In this document: in pieces, positions 361 to 58,639 of the stretch | How positions within the stretch are numbered: position 1 is the first letter of the stretch | Layout of the letters: every line of letters starts with the position of its first letter | Source of the DNA: Eledone cirrhosa | Lineage: Eukaryota | Assembly (NCBI GenBank): GCA_964016885.1 | Contig: OZ024741.1 | Location: 294,066,001-294,130,000, forward strand | DNA: 64,000 nucleotides | Reading direction: 5' to 3' | Notes under the pieces: model-generated | The model's input: only the letters and a program-made list of their open reading frames with translations | The model's database searches: none | What the model was told of the DNA's origin: nothing | Program-made: the position numbers and the translations under genes

Positions 361-546
361 AGGTGGATTGGAAGTATCGGTAGAGGGTCGGACGCCATGC
401 TTTGATGCAAAGAGTTACGGCTATTCTGAGTTCAAATCCTGCCGAGGTTAACTTTGCCTTTCATCCTTACGGGGTCGATAAAATAAAGTACCAGTAATAC
501 ACTGGGTAATTGCTGGCCTTGTGCCAAAAGTAGAAACAATTATTAT
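361..546 (+). mobile_element. Nin/Deu-domain SINE
   Basis: B-box-like GAGTTCAAATCC, core GCCTTTCATCCTTACGGGGTCGATAAAATAAAGTACCAG, (TTA)n tail; at least 8 copies in window. Confidence 0.8.
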
Positions 547-1627: not shown

Positions 1628-2778
1628 AAGGAGTAGGTAGAAACTCCATTTTATGTCCCAAATGCAAAGTATGGGTGCATAAAAGATGTAGTGGGATCAC
1701 AGGTAAGCTAACTAAGAACATAGATTTTATATGTGTCCGGTGCTCTGGTGCAATAAGTAGCAGCAAGTGCCGACAGAATACTAGCTCAATCCATTGCGCA
1801 GAGGGTTCTATAGAAATAGTGGACAGCTTCCGTTACCTGGGTGACAAAATCAGCAGTGGGAGAGGGTGCTCTGAAAGTACAGTAGCTAGAGTCAGAACTG
1901 GATGGAAAAAGTTCAGAGAGCTTATACCACTATTAGCCGCTAAAGGGTTCTCCCTAAAAATGAAAGGCAGGCTGTATGATGCCTGCATACGAACAGCAAT
2001 GTTGCATGGCAGTGAGACCTGGGCATTGTGTGCAGAGGATATATGCAGACTGGAGAGGAACGAAGCTTGCATGCTCCGTTGGATGTGTAATAGTAATATA
2101 CGTGAACGGCAAAGCTTAAACGAATTAAGGGAAAAATTAGAAATAAGAGGGATCAGATGTTGTTTACGCAAGAGAAGACTACGTTGGTATGGTCACGTGA
2201 TGCGCATGAAAGACGACAGCTGTATAAAAAAGTGCAGGGCAATAAAAATAGACGGTAGCCACGGAATAGGCAGACCTAGAAAAACCTGGGACGAGCTGAT
2301 AAACTCCGACCTCACACACTTACACCTCTCCAAGACAATGTCACTGGACCGAGATCTTTGGCGCTACACAGTAATAGAGAAGACCCGCCTTACCTAAGTA
2401 CAAAGTGAAACCTACTACACTCAGTAGGCACCTCTAACAAAATACATCCCCATCTCACTACCCCCACCCCATCCACACCACCCCTTTCAATGTAAAGTTA
2501 TGTTGGTACCACAGCATCCAGCCCGAAACAAATGAGGTCGTGTAGGTGTCACGACAAAAAAACACACAGTCCACGCTGAAATGTGGCCGTGTAGGTAACA
2601 CGGTAAAAACCTCCCAGTTCCACACTGTAAATGTGGTTGGTGTTAGGAAGAGCATCCAGCTGTAGAAAACCCGCCAGACTGACCTATGTGAGCACGACAA
2701 CCACTCTTGCCTCAAGTGGGAAAACTCCCGTCCAAACCCATGCAAATGGACGTTAAACGATGATGATGATGATGATGA
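1628..2778 (+). mobile_element. RTE LINE family A, 5'-truncated, with structured 3'UTR
   Basis: Open frame to 2397 with [35 protein letters not shown]; about 370-nt 3'UTR; (ATG)n tail. Confidence 0.92.
1675..2397 (+). pseudogene. RTE ORF2 C-terminal remnant (part of PHD-like finger and post-RT region)
   Basis: 240-aa ORF in track; typical RTE C-terminal motifs; no genuine start. Confidence 0.85.
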
Positions 2779-2849
2779 TATATATATATGTATCTGTATT
2801 TATAAATATATATATATATATATGTATCTGTATTTATAAATATCTCTCT

Positions 2850-3138
2850 ATTTCACATTGCTCCAGTTTACTCAGCTGTAGAAATGAGATGATAGGGACT
2901 GTGGTCCCTATCATTCCACTGCAAAGTGGTCGTGGAGGTGCCACAGCAAAAAAAAAAGCACCCAGTCCACACTGTAAAATGGACGTGTAGGCGCCATGGA
3001 AAAAAAGCACCCAGCACTCACTGTAAATGAGGTTGGTATTAGGAAGGGCATCCAGCTGTAGAAATCAAGCCAGAATCAGTTCCCGTCCCACCCTTGCAGC
3101 AGGGAAAAGCGGACATAAAATGATGATGATGATGATGA
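2850..3138 (+). mobile_element. SINE-A, 5'-truncated, two pseudoknot units
   Basis: Matches 35250-35470; tail CCCACCCTTGCAGCAGGGAAAAGCGGAC then (ATG)n. Confidence 0.85.
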
Positions 3139-3151
3139 TATATATATATAT

Positions 3152-5275: not shown

Positions 5276-6053
5276 AAGGAAAAAATTAGAAATAAGAGGG
5301 ATCAGATGTTGTTTACTCGAGAGAAGGCTACGTTGGTACGGTCACGTGATGCGCATGAAAGACGACAGCTGTATAACAAAGTGCAGGGCAATAAAGATAG
5401 ACGGTAGCCACGGAGTAGGCAGACCCAGAAAAACATGGGACGAGCTGATAAATTCCGACCTCACACGCTTACACCTCTCCAAGACAATGTCACTGGACCG
5501 AGACCTTTGGCGGTACTCAGTAATAGAGAAGACCCGCCTTACCTAAATACAAAGTAAAAACCTACTACAGTCAGTAGGCACCTCTATCAAAACACACCCC
5601 CGTCCCACCACCTCCACCCCACCCACACCGCCCCTTTCAATGTAAAGTTATGTTGGTCCCACAACATCCAGGCCGAAACAAATGAGATCGTGTAGGTGTC
5701 ACGACAAAAAACACACAGTCCACGCTGTAAATGTGGCCGTGTAGGCAACACGGTAAAAACCTCCCAGCCCCACACTGTAAATGTGGTTGGTGTTAGGAAG
5801 GGCATCCAGCTGTAGAAAACCCGCCAGACAGTCCACGCTGTAATGTGGCCGTGTAGGCAACACGGTAAAAACCTCCCAGCCCCACACTGTAAATGTGGTT
5901 GGTGTTAGGAAGGGCATCCAACTGTAGAAAACCCGCCAGACAGTCCTATGCGAGCAAGACAACCACTCTTGCCTCAAGTGGGAAAACCCCCGTCCAAACC
6001 CATGCAAGCGTGGAACACGGACGCTAAACCTGATGATGATGATGATGATGATG
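5276..6053 (+). mobile_element. RTE-A 3' fragment with tandem duplication in 3'UTR
   Basis: [15 protein letters not shown]...EKTRLT stop; about 5717-5829 duplicated at about 5829-5944; (ATG)n tail. Confidence 0.9.
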
Positions 6054-6428: not shown

Positions 6429-6919
6429 GATATTGTTATACTTTGGGAGGGTCATGTTGCCAATAAGAAACACACGCACTAGTTGCTTTCACTCCAATTT
6501 ATTATAAATTAAATTATAAATTTAAAAATTTATAAATTTCCAGTTGGCTGGTTGGTTCCACAACCGGACGGTTGTTCATATATTGTCAAAGTTTTTTCGT
6601 CACACATTCTGTGACCTCTTCAGTGACTGGGCCTCTTCCTTGTTCTGTCCTATGCCATCTTGTTTTTGTGTGTGTTGTGTGCTTAGTTTGCACATGTGTT
6701 ACATCCAGGTGTCTGTGTGTGTTTTTATTTGTTTATTTATTTGTTTATTTACATGTTACTGGCTGGTTGTTTGACAATATATGAACAACCGTCTGGCTGT
6801 GGAACCAACCAACCAACCGGAAATTTATAAATTTTTTAATTTATAATAAATTGGAGTGAAAGCAACTGGTGCGTGTGTTTCTTATTGGCAACATGACCCT
6901 CCCAAAGTATAACAATATC
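6429..6919. repeat. Fold-back element, arms 6429-6590 and 6770-6919
   Basis: GATATTGTTATACTTTGGGAGGG...TATTGTCAAA versus TTTGACAATA...CCCTCCCAAAGTATAACAATATC. Confidence 0.9.
6585..6627 (-). ncRNA. Hammerhead ribozyme-like motif, stem III degenerate
   Basis: GTCA-CTGAAGA-G-GTCACA-GAATG-TGTGAC-GAAA-AAACTT-TGAC; 6-bp stem II, 4-bp stem I. Confidence 0.6.
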
Positions 6920-8493
6920 ATCACCATCATCATCATCATCATCATTTTACGTCCGCTCTTCCCTGCTCGCAAGGGTGGGACAGGTCTTATTCAGCACACC
7001 ATCTCTCCACTTGTCACGGTCCTTTGTCATCTCCACCATGAGCTTCAACGATCTGAGGTCTGTTCTCACCACCTCCGCCCATGTTTTTCGTGGTCTACCT
7101 CTACCACGTCTTCCTTCAACTGGCAATTCCTGGCACTTCTTCACCCATCGGTCATCCTCCATGTGCATTACATGTCTATACCACCTCAGTCTCCTCTCCC
7201 GTACACTACATTCTATCCCTCTCAGACACAGTTTCTCTCTCAACGCATTCATGCTGGGTCGTTCACGCACATTTACACTGCACATCCAACGGAGCATGCT
7301 TGCCTCATTTCTCTCCAGCCATCGCATATCCTCTGCAGTTGCTGCCCATGTCTCACTACTATGCAGCATCACGCTCCTCACACAGGCATCATACAACCGG
7401 CCTTTCGTACACAGGGAAAAACCCTTCTTCATCAGCAGAGGAAGCAGCTCCCTAAACTTCTTCCAACCCGTCCTTATTCTAGATACTATGACCTCGGAAC
7501 ACCCTTCTCCCATGCTAATCTGATCTCCTAGGTACCGGAAGCTATCCACCACTTCTATAGCACCCTCCTGCATTTGAAAAATGTGTCTATCAGTGCGACT
7601 TCTACTGTCTAATTTCCCTGTACATCTACTGCATACATATTTCTCCCTACCTGTTAGTTTGCCTGCTATCCCACTACATCTCTTGCGTATCCAGGATCTG
7701 CATTGTGTGCATTTTATAGAATTTGTGCCAGTTCCTTTTCTGCATATCGAACATGGCCATTTCCCTGACAGAATCAGAGTTTCGTCCTCTTTTCTACTCA
7801 TCAACACTTTTGTCTTAGCTAGGTTCACTCTCAGTCCTTTTGCTTCCAACTGCTGTTTCCATAGCCAGAATTTATTCTCTAGCTCATCTACTGATTCTGC
7901 TATAAGAACCAGATCGTCAGCATAGAGAAGTTCCCATGGACAGCCAGTCTTAAACTCCTCTGTTATGGCTTGGAGGACTATAATGAACAAGAGCGGGCTG
8001 AGGACCGAACGTTGACGTACTCCTACTTGTATCTGGAATTCCTCACTAAACTCCATTCCTACCCTGACTTTACTGAGAGTACCTCTGTACAAAGTTTGCA
8101 CTGTCCTCACAAGCCATTCCTCAACACCTAGTTTCCTTAGGGACCACCAGATGACAGATCGGGGTACCCTATCAAAGGCCTTCTCTAGGTCAACAAAGGC
8201 TATGTATAGTGGCTTATTTTTTTCTAAGAACCTCTCTTGCAATTGTCTCACTAAGAAGAGGGCATCTGTTGTACTCTTCCCAGGCACAAAACCAAACTGC
8301 ATCTCATCTAGTTTGACCCTTTCTCTAATTAGTTGTGCTAATATCCTTTCTGCCACTTTCATAACCTGATCCATCAGTTTTATACCCCTATAATTGCTCC
8401 TCTCCAGAGCATCCCCTTTACCTTTGCAGCAATTTATGAGAATACTGCTGCACCAGTCTTTGGGTATGACACCACCATATATAGCCTGATTGA
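6918..8493 (-). mobile_element. RTE LINE family B, 5'-truncated, open RT frame
   Basis: NYRGIKL, QFGFVPGKST, FVDLEKAFDRVP, YADD at 7924-7913; ORF runs into (ATG)n tail; 5' end abuts (TA)n. Confidence 0.95.
6947..8493 (-). pseudogene. Reverse transcriptase ORF2 remnant (endonuclease domain missing)
   Basis: About 515 uninterrupted codons; the N-terminal MMIDH..YIYI part is flank read-through. Confidence 0.9.
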
Positions 8494-9319
8494 TATATAT
8501 ATATACAATATCAACGACATGATCTATCATCATTCAGTATTGTGTATCGCTACCTAGATGTATTTATTGTAAAATTTATCTCTCCCCCCCACTCTCTCTC
8601 TCAGAGCTTCACCTCTTTCTCTCTCATACAACTTTGCTAACAAACTTTCTCTTCCTGATTATCATCAATGCTCTGCTGTTTTACTGAGAGAAAGAGAAAG
8701 GAAACTAAGGACTAAAGGTGCAAGAAAAAGAGAATTTGACATTATGAATTCTATGCCTGTTGTAATGCATAATAGAATACGAGAGAGAGAAAAGCATAGG
8801 GAGATAGAGAGAGAGATATGTCATGAGAGTGGGGGGATGAGAGATAGGAAGAGTAAAGTAAAAGATGGGTTTATTTAAAATTTGAACATATAACATGTTT
8901 CATGTTAGGAATGGCATCCAGCTATAGAAACCAAACCAAAATACAGATCCATATGAGTATGACATGGTCTCTGGATCTGACTTGTCTAATAATGCGACAA
9001 CCCACCTAAACTATGCAAGCATGGAAAAATCAATGTTATATGATGATGATGATTACATTAACTAAATGTGCAGCTCAGACAATGCTCATATTTCTTTTGT
9101 ATTAAATTTTATTCGTTCACATAAAACAGGAGTAACATACCAGCATGGGTCTGTAATTTCTTAATGATGTACATTTAAAACTTGCCGGAAGGTGACCTCC
9201 AGCATGCACATGGATGGGTTTCCTGCAGACTGTTGCATGGCAGGAATGAAAATCAATGTTGTGAAGACTGAGATATTTGTCCTTTTCAGAAAGCCTGCAT
9301 AGCATGCTCTGATGTATGT

Positions 9320-15667: not shown

Positions 15668-16397
15668 AACAGCGATTTGCGTTGGACAAAGCACATCTCT
15701 AAAATTGTCAAGAAGGCCGAGGGTGTCTTGGCATCACTCAGCAAGACCTTTGTTAGCCGCTCTCCAGCTATCTATTTAAGGCTGTACATGGCTATGGTAC
15801 GACCACACTTGGAATTCACATCATCAGTCTGGAACCCCTATCTTGCTCAGAACATTGACCTCCTGGAAACTGTTCAGAGACGTGCAACCAAGCGCATACC
15901 CTCCATCAGACACCTACCATACTCTGAACGCCTTGCTTCCCTGGGCATAGATTCATTGAAGCTCTGACGTCTGGCAATGGGCTTGGTAAACACCCACAAA
16001 GTTATTAATCATCTCGCCAACAACAACCCTGAGCACCTTTTTTATTTCCATGTGTCTAACACACGTGGACATGCCTACAAAATCAGAAAACAGCACAGCT
16101 CCCATGTCTTTCGGAAACATTTTTTCATGCTTAGAGTTGCTGAAGCATGGAACAAACTGCCTGCGTCAGTTGTTAGCTGCCGAGACACTGCATCCTTTAA
16201 AACCCTCATGCTTCTCAAAATTCGCCAAAACTTCACCTGATGTCCCCCTTCCATACACATGCACACATGTGTATATCATGACTCATGCTCTGTTCATTTT
16301 CCTGACGTTTGTACATTACCCTATGTACTATACATACACTTTTGATGAGTTCTAGTGCACCTGAGCACTGTACACAATATTTTCATTATTATTATTA
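15668..16397 (+). mobile_element. CR1-clade LINE, 5'-truncated
   Basis: DLRWTKHI, VRPHLEF..VWNPY, LETVQRRATK, one in-frame stop, (TTA)n tail. Confidence 0.92.
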
Positions 16398-18778: not shown

Positions 18779-20229
18779 CATAAATGTTCTGCTGTTATTT
18801 CCTGGCAGTTAAAGCTTGTGGCACAGGAAATTAAGTATATTTCTTTGGAATACTTATACTGAATTTGAAATCACAAATCAGAAGCTTTTGGCCGAATATT
18901 TTACCAACATAGATCACATAGATACATTTCTTCTCCACCTACATAACATTGAAATAATTATTACTTTTATATTAGTAATTTGTGTGTGTGTGTTGCTGTA
19001 GAGATATTCTTAATTCTTTATGGGAACAAGAAATAGATCATTTACTTCACTTTTTTTTTTAATAATGTCTGCATATGTGTGTGTGTGTATGTATATATAT
19101 ATATATATATATATTATGAATATGATTATTTTTATTATTATATAGGTATGTATAATTTCACGAAAAATTTTCCGATTTGTGAATTTCTGGAAGAGAAAAA
19201 ATTGTAGAAAAATTTAGAATTCAGATATGACAGATCAAAAAAAAAATACTTTAAAGATTTTTTTTAAAGATGTGATGCTGTGTTTTGAAATGACAGAAAA
19301 ATAATCAAAGAAAGATTAAACAAGACAAAAATATTCAAAAATAAATGTTTAAATCTTTGGTCTATTTTAACATTTTTTCTGGAGGCAATGATGTGTTTTG
19401 TACAGCATGGAGTACAGCGTAACAGTTCAAAAAAGATATTATCATATTCATACTAAGAGTATAACCCAGTCATAATTTTATTTCTAATGAAATACACTGC
19501 CTATGTGTAGAATATAAGCCAAGAGAAGTAAGGAAGGGGTCATAGAATCTCTGATAACCCTCATGACCCTATCACAATTCACCACCTTGAACTGATACTT
19601 TATTTTATCAACTACAAAGGATGAAAGGTAAAGTTAGCTATGAGAGGATTTGAACTCAGATTCTAAGGACATTTTGTTCTAAACTCTAACCCTGCCAATT
19701 TTACCATCTTGGACTGGTACTTTAATTTATCAAACCCAAAAGGACGGAAGGCAAAGTTCACCTCAGCTGGATTTGAACTTAGAATGTAAAGAGTCTGGAC
19801 AAATTGTGGCAGGTATTTTGTCCCATGCTCTAATGGTTTAACCCTGGTTTCTCACATAATTGGGTTAATAGTTGATTAGAGGATGTGCATTCACAAACTA
19901 AGTCAAGTACTTGATATTTCGAGAAGTAGAGTTAAATATCGTTTTTAGAATAGGTACACCATTTACCTGCATGTTGTAAGAGGTGACTAAAAGGATTTTT
20001 GACAGGAAGGGCTTCCAGCCATAAAACACTACCTCAAAATGTCTTGTCTATCCCACACTGGCACGGAAAAGTGGGTATTAAAAGGACAATGTTGATGATA
20101 AATAGTCCACAGGTATATAAGAAGAAAACAAAATGATCAAAACAAATTTATTAGCTGGTAAATAACTATGTATATAAATATATATATATATATATAGCTG
20201 ATTATATTTACACCAGGACATAACTGGTA

Positions 20230-28332: not shown

Positions 28333-28626
28333 ATAAAGTGTCTTGCTCAAGGAAACAACACAGACCGGGTGATGTGTTGTTTCCTTGAGCAAGACACTTT
28401 ATTTCACATTGCTCCAGTTTACTCAGCTGTAGAAATGAGATGATAGGGACTGGGGTCCCTATCATTCCACTGTAAAGTGGACGTGTAGGTGCCACGGCAA
28501 AAAAGCACCCAGCACTCACTGTAAATGAGGTTGGTGTTAGGAAGGGCATCCAGCTGTAGAAATAAAGCCAGAATCAGTTCCCGTCCCACCCTTGCAAGCA
28601 GAGAAAAGCGGACGTAAAATGAAATG

Positions 28627-30262: not shown

Positions 30263-30648
30263 TCATCGCTAGCATGGGTTAGACGGGTCCCATTTAGAGG
30301 CAAGTTGGGTCGGGTGACTGTGTCTCTCTCATATAGGGGTGTTTCTGGCTGGTTTTCTACAGCTGGATGCCCTTCCTAATGCCAACCATATTGACAGCGT
30401 GTGCTGGGTGCTTTTTGCCATGTGTTTTACACATCCACTTTACAGTGTGGGCTGGGTGATTTTTGCTGTGTCTTTGGCACATCCACTTTACAGTGTGGGC
30501 TGGGTGGTTTTTGCTGTGTCTTTGGCACATCCACTTTACAGTGTGGGCTGGGTGGTTTTTGCTGTGTCTTTGGCACATCCACTTTACAGTGTGGAATGGG
30601 TGGTTTTTGCCGTGTCTTTTACATGTCCACTTTACCATGTGGGCTGGG
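30263..30648 (-). mobile_element. SINE-A-related copy with about five 48-bp internal units
   Basis: ACATCCACTTTACAGT recurs at 30431, 30479, 30527, 30575. Confidence 0.8.
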
Positions 30649-30687
30649 TATATATTTGAAAATGTGTGCAATCCTTGATACAGTTAG

Positions 30688-50532: not shown

Positions 50533-51011
50533 TCATCATCGTTTAACGTCTATCTTCCACACTAGCATGGGTATATCATCATCATCATCATCATCATCAT
50601 CGTTTAACGTCCATTTTCCACGCTTGCATGGGTTTGGATGGGAGTTTTCCCACCTGAGGCAAGATTGGTTGTCCTGCTCGTATAGGACTGTCTGGCGGGT
50701 TTTCTACGGCTGGATGCCCTTCGTAACACCAACCACGTCTACAGTGTGGACTGGGAGGTTTTCTCCGTGTTACCTACACGGCCACATTACAGCGTGGACT
50801 GTGTGTTATTTTGTTGTGACACCTACACGTCTGGCGGGTTTTCTACTACTGCATGCCCTTCCCAACACCAACCACGTTTACAGTGTGTACTGGGAGGTTT
50901 TTACTGTGTTACCTACACGGCCACATTACAGCGTGGACTGTGTGTTTTTTTTTTTTTGTTGTGACACCTACACAACCTCATTTGTTTCAGACTGGATGTT
51001 GTGGTACCAAC
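50533..51011 (-). mobile_element. RTE-A mini-tail (50533-50572) and 3'UTR fragment with internal duplication (50576-51011)
   Basis: Reverse complement of the preceding 3'UTR; tail-to-tail arrangement. Confidence 0.88.
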
Positions 51012-51297
51012 ATATATATATAAGTACTGTGTGTGTGTGTGTGTATATATTTGTCTAGTTAATTTCTATGGGCTAAAAGGAATGACTATATAAATTTTAT
51101 CTGACTGTTCATCGCGGAAAATAGTCTGTATTATTTGTCTATTATTTCTTCATAGTTAGATTTTAAACTTATAGCCTCGTTTAAATGATTATTTATGAGG
51201 TTGATTTCTATGGACTAGGGAGAAGAAAGACTGTGTATATTTTATCTAATAATTCTTCAAACTTGCAATTTTATATATATGTATATATATATATAAG

Positions 51298-55304: not shown

Positions 55305-56050
55305 AACAATGAAATGTTTGTGTACAGTGCTCAGGTGCACTACAACTCATCATAGGTGCATGTATAGTACATAGAATAATATACAAATGTCAGGGAAGTG
55401 AATAGTGTATGAGCCATGATATACATGTGTGTATGTGTATGGAGGGGGAATATTAGGTGTAGTGTTGGCGAATCTCAGGAAGCATGGAGGTTTTAAAGGA
55501 TGCAGTGCCTCGACAGCTAATAACTGATGCAGGTAGTTTGTTCCATGCTTCAGCAACTCTGAGCATGAAAAAATGTTTCCGAAAGTCATGGGAAGTGTGC
55601 TGTTTTCTGACTTTGTAGGCATGCCCACTTGTGTTAGACACATGGAAATCAAAAAGGTACTCAGAGTTGTTGTTGGCAAGATGGTTAATAATTTTGTGGG
55701 TGTTTACCAAGTCAGTTGCCAGGCGTCGGAGCTTCAATGTATCCATGCCCAGGGAAGCAAGGCGTTTAGAGTATGGTAGATGCCTGATGGAGGGTATTTG
55801 TTTGGTTGCATGTCTCTGAACAGTTTCCAGGCGGTCAATGTTCTGAACAAAATAGGGGTTCCAGACTGGTGATGCAAATTCTAAGTGTGGCCGCACCATA
55901 GCTATATACAGCTTTAAATAGATAGCTGGAGAACGGCTGACAAAGGTCTTGCTGAGTGATGCTAAGACACCCTCGGCCTTCTTGAAAATGTTAGAGATGT
56001 GCTTCGTCCAACGCAAATCGCTGCTAACCGTAACGCCCAGGTCACGTTCA
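55305..56050 (-). mobile_element. CR1-clade LINE, 5'-truncated, open frame
   Basis: ERDLGVTVSSDLRWTKHI...RVAEAWNKLPASV. Confidence 0.92.
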
Positions 56051-57413
56051 CATTGTCTGAATGTGGGGTTGTAATCACTGAAGAAAGCGCACTGCATAAA
56101 CATAAAGATAAATGTGTATATTGTATAAAACACATGGCAAACTGGCATATACTTTCCTAAGTGCATGTGTAGGAGTCTGTGCATGTGTACTTACACATTT
56201 TCGAAGGATATTTGTTTTCATGAAGGACTTCACTGAATTTTTAGCACCAATGATACACTTTCCAATGGTTGATGAATGCAGCATCAATATCATAAGTTTG
56301 AGAACCTCTGAGGACCTAGGAAGATATATGCCAGTTTGACATGTGTTTCATATACACAGAAAAAGAGACATCAATTATTCCTTGAGATGGAAAACAAAAA
56401 TATTTAGTTAGCTATCAAGAAATAACATTTACAATATATAAATTGTAAATAGATATTAATTCTATGGAGTTCACAATTCTATGCACATAACCAATCAACG
56501 TCTCTTATTCTCCTATCTCCTTATCCACCCACTGATTTCTAAGAAGATTCTAACTTTTCTGAACATAAGAACATAACCCAGCCACAAAATTACTTGTGCA
56601 TAAACAGATACATGGCATGGTTCCACAGTTGAGTCACAGCGGTGGTGTAGTGGCATCCAGTGTTTCTTGGGATTTTTTAAGCCTATATCTCTTTCCAGAG
56701 GAGAAAGAGATATAGAGGAATTAGCATTAGTACTAGACTGGTACTTTTTAAGATCAACCTTCACAGGATGAAAGGGAAAAGTAACCTCGGCGAAATTTGA
56801 ACTCATAGAGCCAGAACAAATACCGCAAAGTATTCTATGTGACATTCTAATGACTACCAATTTGCTGCCTTGTATACAGATACATAACCAACTGTAATGT
56901 GACAGCATTCAATTTAGCCAAAATTCTTCTGAAGATATGTTCTAAATACATTGATGTCTAGTGAGTTAAAGTAAAACATTAATTCTTTAGTTCTAAAGTT
57001 AGGGCTTAAAATCTAATGGACATGACATATGGAAAATCTGATTGTATGAAATAGATCTCTGAAGAAAGCATAGCCCAAATTTTGTTATGTTGAGACATTT
57101 GTAAGGAACGCTGAATAAATACAGCTTTCAATATACATTTCATTGTTTTCTGTTCACTATTTATATATATTTGTATGCATGCGTATATATATATATATAT
57201 CTTTTAGCTGTTCTAGCCATCCGGCTGAGGCCATGGTGGGGCATGTATTTAGATGTGTATATATAATCCGTGTGTAAATTAGGAGGTGACCACTGCTATA
57301 AAAGGTACTCAATACATTAGTAGAGTATGGGTATATTTATTTTATTATAGAAACGACTTCTACATGAGTAAAACTGTTTCATTTGTAAGAAATCTTCCGG
57401 AAACTGTTCTAGT

Positions 57414-57563: not shown

Positions 57564-57910
57564 ACATTGGCCTTGCAATCGAAAGGTTGTGAGTTCAATT
57601 CTCAGACCGGGTGATGTGTTGTTTCCTTGAGCAAGACACTTTATTTCATATTGCTCCAGTTTACTCAGCTGTAGAAATGGGGTCCCTATCATTCTACTGC
57701 AAAGTGGCCGTGGAGGTGCCACGGCAAAAAAGCACCCAGCCCACACTGTAAAGTGGACATGTAGGCGCCACAGAAAAAAAGCACCCACCACTCACTGTAA
57801 ATGAGGTTGGTGTTAGGAAGGGAATCCAGCTGTAGAAATCAACCCAGAATCAGTTCCTGTCCCACCCTTGCAAGCAGGGAAAAGCGGACGTAAAATGAAA
57901 TGATGAAATG
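57564..57910 (+). mobile_element. SINE-A, slightly 5'-truncated, two pseudoknot units
   Basis: Matches 35172 onward. Confidence 0.88.
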
Positions 57911-58639
57911 AATATATATATATATATTTGAGAGAGAGAGAGAGATTTGGATATGTGTGTGTGTATGCACATAAATATCGATTGCAGAGAATATAACTTA
58001 ATAAAAGAACAGCTTTCAAGTGATTAAGATAAAGAAGAACAATTACAGCTAATGAGATTGTTTATTAATAGTAAATGAATCGAAGAAAATAGAATAAGCA
58101 GCTGGGTCACCATTGGAGAGACATTAGATACTGAACTGTGTGGGGGTGTGAAGGAGAGTGTGAGAGAGAGGTGACAAGACCAGTATGGACATGTAGAAGA
58201 AAATAGAAAAGGATCAATTTTAGAAAAAATGTGAGTTACTGGGTGAAGTTTTTCATTAAAGAGTATATACCAAGGAAGACATAGAAGAAATTGATTTGAT
58301 GATATTTGATAATGTTAGGACTAACAAAGGAATGGTAAGAAAATCAAGGTATCTGGAGAGGTTTCTTATTACAGAAGGACCTCTTTTACTAACACCCAAA
58401 AATATCTGCCCCACAGATGTACAGCCTTCATAATCTGACCACTCCTTACACTAGGGTTTCAGGTATTTCAGCCATTCTCTTCCAATTCAATCTTTCACCC
58501 AAATAGAGCAAAAAGATTGACAGGCCCCTATGCTTAAACCTACTTAGCTTTTTGGATAATACAACCCTACTTACATTTCTACAACATTTTTGCTTCAGAG
58601 TTAATTAGTTGAATACATTTTGCACTGAAGACCACACAT

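Follow-up and report, generated by a model that had tools for sequence, protein, structure and literature searches.

What is the short repetitive block that lies behind the stop codon of a LINE in the octopus Eledone cirrhosa and recurs in the body of a SINE, does its RNA fold into pseudoknots, and what might it do? The block was originally predicted, from a 64,000-nt stretch of contig OZ024741.1 (here called the window), to be a virus-like structured 3' domain built of tandem H-type pseudoknots and anticodon-like hairpins. We find that the module is a real and abundant repeat, for which a knot fold is plausible and, in the alignments modelled here, partly covarying.

A 48-nt unit with a predicted pseudoknot

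The module occupies the 3'UTR of a 5'-truncated family A LINE whose ORF ends with a PHD-type finger (Table 1). Its repeating unit is 48 nt long and consists of a predicted H-type knot, CAG, a spacer and a CUGUAAA hairpin. Inspection of the sequence bore out the pairings first proposed for PK1 (GTCGTG/CACGAC and GTGT/ACAC), which leave the loop TAG between stem strands and a loop of six A residues. Those proposed for the SINE unit at 57707-57736 (GCCGTGG/CCACGGC with GGTG/CACC) are also present, and the same letters allow an alternative parse, GCCGTG/CACGGC with GGTGC/GCACC. An H-type knot cannot have a loop 1 of 0 nt. A knot is possible for PK2, but the parse first suggested, CCGTGT/ACACGG with AGGT/ACCT, leaves exactly that; a workable parse is GCCGUG/CACGGU with U as loop 1, AGGU/ACCU, and AA between the stems, 2 nt rather than the 0-1 nt said to hold throughout. 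In the T2596C subfamily, stem 2 of PK2 is down to 3 bp.

Two further details of the original description need correcting. Alternation with CTGTAAA hairpins holds at 2620-2636, but the hairpin in the PK1-PK2 spacer, CCAC-GCTGAAAT-GTGG, has an 8-nt loop without that word. A CCA after the pseudoknots exists only if a paired C is borrowed from stem 2 (CACC-CAG), and what follows PK1 is ACAG.

Interleaved stems, a loop 1 of at least 1 nt, a loop 2 of 0-2 nt and a loop 3 spanning stem 1 were found in ten of 12 representative units, and no favourable knot form in two of the 12. A strict knot scan returned seven matches on both window strands versus two in 12 resampled single strands, and a first scan returned five, all inside LINE or SINE elements with the module; as such matches are copies of the same repeats, they show a repeat and are not independent support for the fold.

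Table 1. Features of the window that bear on the module (positions within the 64,000-nt stretch).
Feature	Position	Strand	Remarks
5'-truncated LINE family A	1628..2397	+	C-terminal 255 aa of a single EN-RT-PHD ORF; ORF end 1630-2397, stop 2395-2397
PK1, unit 1, predicted H-type pseudoknot	2537..2565	+	GUCGUG/CACGAC, GUGU/ACAC
Hairpin 1	2571..2586	+	CCAC-GCUGAAAU-GUGG, 8-nt loop; other copies have T at 2579
PK2, unit 2, predicted pseudoknot	2586..2612	+	Re-registered, weak stem 2 AGGU/ACCU
Hairpin 2	2620..2636	+	CCACA-CUGUAAA-UGUGG, 7-nt loop
GGAAGGGCATCC motif, predicted third pseudoknot	2635..2675	+	GUUGG/CCAGC + GGC/GCC; A at 2651 here
RTE-type 3' tail and (ATG)n microsatellite	2727..2779	+	Resembles family B tail
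5'-truncated SINE copy	2846..3138	+	Two units, motif, family B tail
Family A 3' end	5496..6031	+	Tandem duplication of ~112 nt of the module
5'-truncated LINE family B	6900..8533	-	LINE B also given as 6947-8533; ORF runs into tail, no 3'UTR module
Array of five 48-nt units, then motif	30340..30660	-	Degraded stem 2
SINE tRNA-like head (5'-truncated) and CORE-like domain	57565..57681	+	A/B boxes; CORE identity by eye and from the accessible Kojima 2018 supplement
SINE module	57707..57846	+	Unit 1 (57707-57736, intact), hairpin, unit 2, CUCA-CUGUAAA-UGAG hairpin, motif
Family B tail, 42 nt, and (ATGAA)n repeat	57854..57912	+	

Abundance and tandem duplication

A profile of the unit matched 265 times in 92 elements within 1.054 Mb of sampled sequence (34 of 100 stretches) and had no match in reversed control sequence; outside the source genome, 120 metagenome loci likewise gave none. 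Most elements carry one or two units, and nearly all run on into the GGAAGGGCATCC motif. Roughly extrapolated, these counts correspond to ~260,000 elements and ~750,000 units in the 3.0-Gb genome, figures biased upward because the sample includes the window itself. The unit also forms minisatellites, with up to 45.7 copies at 92% match.

Arrays of 5-46 copies of the 48-nt unit, often with a degraded stem 2 or stem 1, occur at four sampled loci (L039, L077, L079 and L085) as well as in the window (Table 1). At the level of subfamilies, a block of 112-113 nt of the module has been duplicated in tandem, joined at a short CAGAC/ACAGTCC microhomology (window 5563-6031, plus strand, and 50580-51030, minus strand; L059, L065 and L374).

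Covariation and folding energetics

Genomic copies are dead and drift neutrally; the comparison was therefore made on 14 rows, a single representative for each position in each subfamily. In this alignment 85.7% of cells are paired, 11 of them two-sided, as against 27-47% paired in slid registers. None of 500 shuffles paired as highly as the observed rows, in a control that ignores relatedness and takes a structure derived from the same sequences. Stem 1 covaries at two pairs among the 14 representatives. Its second pair occurs as U-A, U.G or C-G; the junction base, depending on the family, joins stem 1 (as U-A, G-C or C-G) or stem 2 (as C-G, U-A or U.G).

In stem 2, conservation outweighs covariation, and the two clean two-sided changes both fall in the second unit of A and D. 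Subfamily D carries a double transversion from U-A to A-U (GGUG/CACC to GGAG/CUCC) in 19 of 22 parsed copies (25 in total), and an intermediate subfamily changes G-C to A-U in a single representative row. Two-sided pairs number six in all, including one due to CpG decay in a single copy and another from a lone old copy. The last hairpin, read directly from the sequence, has A-U versus U-A in LINE A versus the SINE. Second units have a broken stem 2 in young A (33 loci with GGCAA) and in G and the SINE (eight loci with GGCGC), and in three contig sets the stem-breaking variants T2596C and G2537A account for ~33-73% and ~46-60% of depth. Some of the covariation is real, but the claim that every unit keeps its fold is not supported, given the broken second-unit stem 2 of young subfamilies.

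Energetically, the knot ties with or slightly beats the nested fold in five of 12 units and loses by 1-3 kcal/mol in five others, under a conservative loop penalty of 9.6 kcal/mol that leaves out coaxial and triple terms; the family B knot loses by 2.9 kcal/mol. Nested folding was no stronger on the sense strand (z of -1.7, -0.8 and -0.8, versus -2.4, -2.3 and -0.5), and recurring GUGG/CCAC words permit alternative registers. We regard the predicted knot fold as plausible and modestly supported, most strongly for first units.

These data also bear on an unlikely alternative that gives weight to the hairpins and the old GGAAGGGCATCC motif alone and sees in the 48-nt unit a duplicated, drifting piece, its stem 2 being leftover complementarity and no pseudoknot being under selection. 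Several successful young subfamilies do have a broken stem 2, and the expansion of the unit as plain 48-bp minisatellites fits as well. Similarity between unit and motif is weak (scores matched by 2, 9 and 13 of 300 shuffles in the best comparisons and by up to 300 of 300 in the others) and suggests duplication. The double transversion in D, the re-registered AGGU/ACCU that follows the break, and a first-unit junction base that can always pair are, however, hard to explain without selection on pairing.

The module lies at opposite ends of sister LINEs

Long copies of family A encode 974-1155 aa, with endonuclease, reverse transcriptase and PHD in one ORF, and have an (ATG)n tail; ORFs of 1045 and 1155 aa carry PF03372/PF14529, PF00078 and a PHD-type finger. 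Families A and B, sisters with 63% protein identity, would on this anatomy and by comparison with RTE-2_OV (PMC9115989) belong to the RTE clade.

Family B has no 3'UTR, and its ORF reads straight into the tail. In six of ten long loci the unit lies in the 5'UTR, about 45-190 nt upstream of the ATG, and 30 of 30 loci retrieved with that stretch have the module there. The last 190 nt before the ATG hold, in order, a hairpin with CUGUAAA, a larger predicted knot into which a hairpin is inserted, a single small knot (GUGC/GCAC with GGUG/CACC), CAG, a second hairpin and the motif. In family A, unit and motif follow the stop codon; upstream of the ORF neither was present in 18 of 18 parsed loci (of 20), and four further loci gave no credible match. 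Subfamilies D and G, sister to A, likewise carry the module after the stop, and G (three loci, C-terminus 69-75% identical to A) has the SINE's version of it. The dedicated 3' domain first envisaged is not supported, since the unit stands in the 5'UTR of family B. Older relatives repeat the 5'UTR block with periods of ~90 and ~143 nt, and stem 1 has only 3 bp in family C.

Several observations concern the surroundings of these modules. Family B copies are alike up to >1.5 kb upstream of the module, an exceptionally long 5' region that includes a poly-T run of 20-30 nt just before the module (L305-L334). The larger predicted knot upstream of the small one reads AGGGGU/GCCCUU with AGAGAGG/CCUCUCU in family B (L100, about 1800-1850, plus strand) and AAAGGGU/ACCCUUU with UGGGAGG/CCUCCCU in family C (L110-L134); the two have different inserted hairpins and look covarying by eye, uncounted. 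An HDV-like reading of the family B upstream knot was rejected: it has no room for P3/L3, copies extend upstream, and Rfam gave no match. Fragments of other LINE C-termini lie at 55453-56190 (minus strand), 1-181 and 15990-16355 (both plus strand); we take them to be CR1/L2-like, and the longest had no Pfam match.

The SINE is a composite

A/B boxes in the tRNA-like head of the SINE and a CCTTGAGCAAG core were recognised by eye; ARAGORN and Rfam reported no tRNA in the window. In the CORE-like domain behind the head, a hairpin loop GAGCAA (57629-57634) is complementary to TTGCTC (57651-57656), after which come CAG and a CUGUAGAAA hairpin. Unit 2 of the module in this copy (57707-57846) has decayed, with a C.A mismatch in stem 2. 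The 3' end equals 41-42 nt of B's tail in 16 copies. The body thus matches a piece of an RTE 5'UTR (the family B unit and motif) and the 3' end the B tail, so that by its letters the SINE would be a tRNA-like head, a CORE-like domain, a LINE-derived module and a B tail joined together. That the LINE 3'UTR and the SINE have the module in common was confirmed, the sharing being one of common descent, and the SINE's module probably came from the 3'UTR of a sister LINE. A perfect 11-bp hairpin (ATGATAGGGAC/GTCCCTATCAT) links the CORE-like domain to the module in other SINE copies, for instance at 28440-28466 of the window (plus strand), and is partly deleted in the copy at 57565.

This layout is that of the bipartite SINEs, which combine a tRNA head, CORE, an RTE-5'UTR-derived body and an RTE 3' tail with a microsatellite (Kojima 2018, PMC5786205). 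Bov-tA, Mar-1, AfroSINE and the Ceph-SINEs share it, and the domain there is internal to the 5'UTR and sometimes duplicated (PMC5786205). The accessible text of that study proposes no fold for the domain, whereas the module described here also occurs in the 3'UTR of an autonomous LINE and in minisatellites; the GGAAGGGCATCC motif had no match in the accessible text of its supplement (PMC5786205).

A candidate position-independent RNA handle

The reading we lean towards, still tentatively, is that this RTE-type repeat module of predicted knots and CUGUAAA hairpins, placed in the B 5'UTR, the A 3'UTR and the SINE body, serves as a position-independent RNA handle that loads an element protein or a host factor. 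That an untranslated SINE retains the module, and that it has switched ends between sister LINEs, favours a role independent of position and translation, most simply RNP loading. Placement is complementary, 5' only in B and 3' only in A. R2 proteins recognise structured 3'UTR RNA, with a pseudoknot in A-clade elements (PMC12503042), and engineered RTE-1 templates carry both UTRs (PMC13708176).

On this model the module would have arisen in the 5'UTR of a B-like LINE. Template switching with a bipartite element would have carried it to the 3'UTR in the A/D/G lineage, and later it would have entered a tRNA-CORE SINE that swapped to B's tail. It would load protein while reverse transcription is primed by a separate 3' tail; since a single intact knot would be enough for an element, duplicated second units could decay. 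We infer that the 5'UTR position is the older one, because the motif stands directly behind twister ribozymes in eight of 120 metagenome loci and published work assigns domains of this kind to RTE 5'UTRs.

The knots could alternatively be RNA stabilisers, barriers that shield transcripts lacking a cap or a long poly(A) tail from exonucleases. This would serve LINE and SINE alike and suits the compact H-type geometry with its A-rich loop 3; a double-pseudoknot ribozyme fold is known to protect R2 templates from 5' exonuclease (PMC13708176). We nevertheless consider it quite unlikely here, since the stems are short with marginal energy and 5' truncations do not pile up at the module (of 13 points in 30 family A loci, two fall in the 11 nt that precede unit 1 and two inside the module, a count of low power).

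A role in translation appears similarly improbable. The module would then be an element recruiting ribosomes or eEF1A, in the manner of the tandem upstream pseudoknot domains of tobamo- and hordeiviruses, on which the SINE hitchhikes. Family B has three predicted knots directly before the ATG, and the upstream pseudoknot domain of TMV boosts translation from the 3'UTR and binds eEF1A (PMC10870377), so either end could work. Against this stand the non-coding SINE, which keeps its first knot intact, and the lack of any match to Rfam viral pseudoknot families or viral contigs.

The module is probably neither tRNA-like nor of viral or ribozyme type

The hairpin loop had been equated with a tRNA-Tyr anticodon loop, and the module could accordingly mimic tRNA-Tyr with an anticodon hairpin and a pseudoknotted acceptor arm, engaging TyrRS or tRNA-processing enzymes. 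The order of hairpin, knot and CCA is indeed TLS-like, and among 152 non-array units the loop is a 7-nt CUGUAAA in 44, 8 nt long in 22 and 9 nt in ten, with 56 lacking the exact word and 20 otherwise built; family B loops have 8 nt. The eukaryotic cytosolic tRNA-Tyr loop, though, is CUGUAGA, CUGUAAA being the bacterial form. Every TLS-Tyr ends in CCA at its 3' terminus, has adenosine as the discriminator base, keeps a terminal C-G pair and mimics the anticodon with a tetraloop, not with CUGUAAA (PMC10870377). Our module shows none of the first three features: it lies inside the transcript, at 148-160 nt from the tail, or else in a 5'UTR; its CCA overlaps stem 2 and is preceded by C, and its stem 2 ends in G-C. 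We therefore hold such mimicry to be highly improbable. CUGUAAA looks rather like a retroposon word than an anticodon, because the same word forms the 7-nt loop of a 6-7-bp hairpin in MIR-type CORE rows (accessible Kojima supplement) and also follows the stem of the widespread motif.

The viral comparison fared no better. Upstream pseudoknot domains and TLS-Tyr of tobamo-, hordei- and bromoviruses likewise consist of small H-type knots in tandem, placed in a UTR of RNAs that lack a long poly(A) tail (PMC10870377); the module differs in the three end features just named and in having its knots separated by hairpins. Two search patterns found no match in viral contigs, Rfam reported nothing at gathering level in the window, and on 2380-3140 and the family B 5'UTR it gave chance-level matches only.

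Could the module be what is left of a self-cleaving twister ribozyme, or a variant of one? The eight metagenome loci in which the GGAAGGGCATCC motif directly follows a twister core, another RTE-like family of the same genome that starts at a twister, and the precedent of Perere-3 (PMC8501958) would invite this view, and in some elements twister-P1 at RTE 5' ends (Perere-3; RF03160) takes the position that the unit has ahead of the motif. The unit, however, lacks the P4/L4 catalytic domain and resembles twisters no more than shuffled sequence does (alignment scores matched by 165-300 of 300 shuffles), the family B 5'UTR gave no twister match, and family B copies remain alike far upstream of the module and therefore have no fixed 5' end there. 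Twister ancestry is thus very hard to credit. A direct twister reading of the unit was rejected, as the P4/L4 core (UCCCAAGC) with both tertiary pairings is absent.

The twister-start family merits description on its own. This RTE-like LINE begins at a twister-P1 (RF03160, best E 4.8e-7, below the gathering score; L280-L304, for example G000:C4:96354674-96354728, plus strand), and in 18 parsed loci the predicted cleavage site has two A residues, past which the flanks vary. Behind the ribozyme come a hairpin and CGUAAAA, with a loop that could pair downstream (UAGC/GCUA). The eight twister-motif loci (L207, L208, L185, L191, L201, L243, L267 and L205, of 120) are metagenomic and probably of animal-host origin.

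A possible wider pattern of knotted retroposon domains

By eye, the GGAAGGGCATCC motif itself fits a knot, GUUGG/CCAGC with GGC/GCC. The GCC partner stands at one offset in 72 of 93 copies from this genome, and a GC(C/T) partner in only 35 of 123 metagenome matches. In 23 aligned rows stem 1 is 85% and stem 2 67% paired with no two-sided change, an alignment uninformative on covariation because the search pattern fixed the 3' strand.

Comparable folds can be drawn elsewhere. The vertebrate BovB-type 5'UTR domain in the accessible Kojima supplement fits an H-type knot by eye, with a covarying stem 1 (CTGGAG/CTCCAG, CTGGGG/CCCCAG, CGGAAG/CTTCCG and CAGAGG/CCTCTG) and an invariant stem 2, GGCAA/TTGCC. 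The CORE-like pairing GAGCAA/TTGCTC (window 57621-57681, plus strand, and others) reached at least five pairs in 22 of 28 matches, versus 30% for shuffled flanks, these copies being related to one another; MIR and MAR1 rows of the same supplement have GGGCAA with TGCCT. The CORE domain of MIR and MAR1 further resembles the unit by eye in having a hairpin with a downstream-pairable loop, CAG and a CUGUAAA-loop hairpin (MIR1_AMi row), with G-C in MIR versus A-U in this SINE at the second pair of stem 2. Its loops are longer and its stem sequence is different. It is conceivable, though doubtful, that the CORE domain, the RTE 5'UTR domain and the 48-nt unit belong to a single class of RNA elements, each built of an H-type pseudoknot, then CAG, then a hairpin or loop with CUGUAAA. 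Their fold would be conserved from cephalopods to mammalian MIR and BovB, and they would load retroposon RNA into a replication complex wherever they are placed.

Pseudoknots in retrotransposon UTRs are already known from R2 (PMC12503042). The A-clade 3'UTR knot of R2 is likewise a non-LTR UTR knot in RNA recognised by an element protein, but it belongs to another clade, lies at the priming end and is not tandem (PMC12503042). As for pseudoknots in RTE UTRs, CORE domains or octopus SINEs, no description turned up in the accessible literature, in line with the original statement; the sequence or a fold may already be given in Akasaki 2010, Gogolevsky 2008, Ohshima and Okada 1994, Dfam, Repbase or patents. 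The word pseudoknot does not occur in the accessible text of PMC4758252 and PMC4824008. Within the sources available to us, the module's architecture in SINEs is known, and its fold and 5'-to-3' relocation were not found in print.

Why unrelated SINEs across phyla keep pieces of RTE 5'UTRs and CORE domains is an open question, on whose functional side the accessible text of Kojima 2018 only speculates. A specific knot model with natural compensatory variants, together with a natural 5'-to-3' relocation, makes it testable by probing and stem swaps. RTE-1 UTRs are being optimised empirically for RNA-based gene insertion (PMC13708176), where a defined structural element would be useful.

Two further groups of elements were noted in connection with the motif. 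Old elements carry a GTYGTAAGAGGYRACTAAAA-type hairpin instead of the unit upstream of the GGAAGGGCATCC motif (window 19930-20090, plus strand; L062, 3450-3620, plus strand; L068), and similar arrangements occur in metagenome loci L224, L171 and L164. An abundant short repeat at L176 (about 365-440, plus strand), with some 49 similar metagenome matches, has a fixed (T)GCCTTCAGT start behind a variable upstream flank. Two members scanned had no Rfam match. Pairing is possible between the first bases of the repeat and the motif loop (CCUUC/GAAGG), as well as a downstream ACUGA, and the start of the repeat may be a structured or self-cleaving 5' end.
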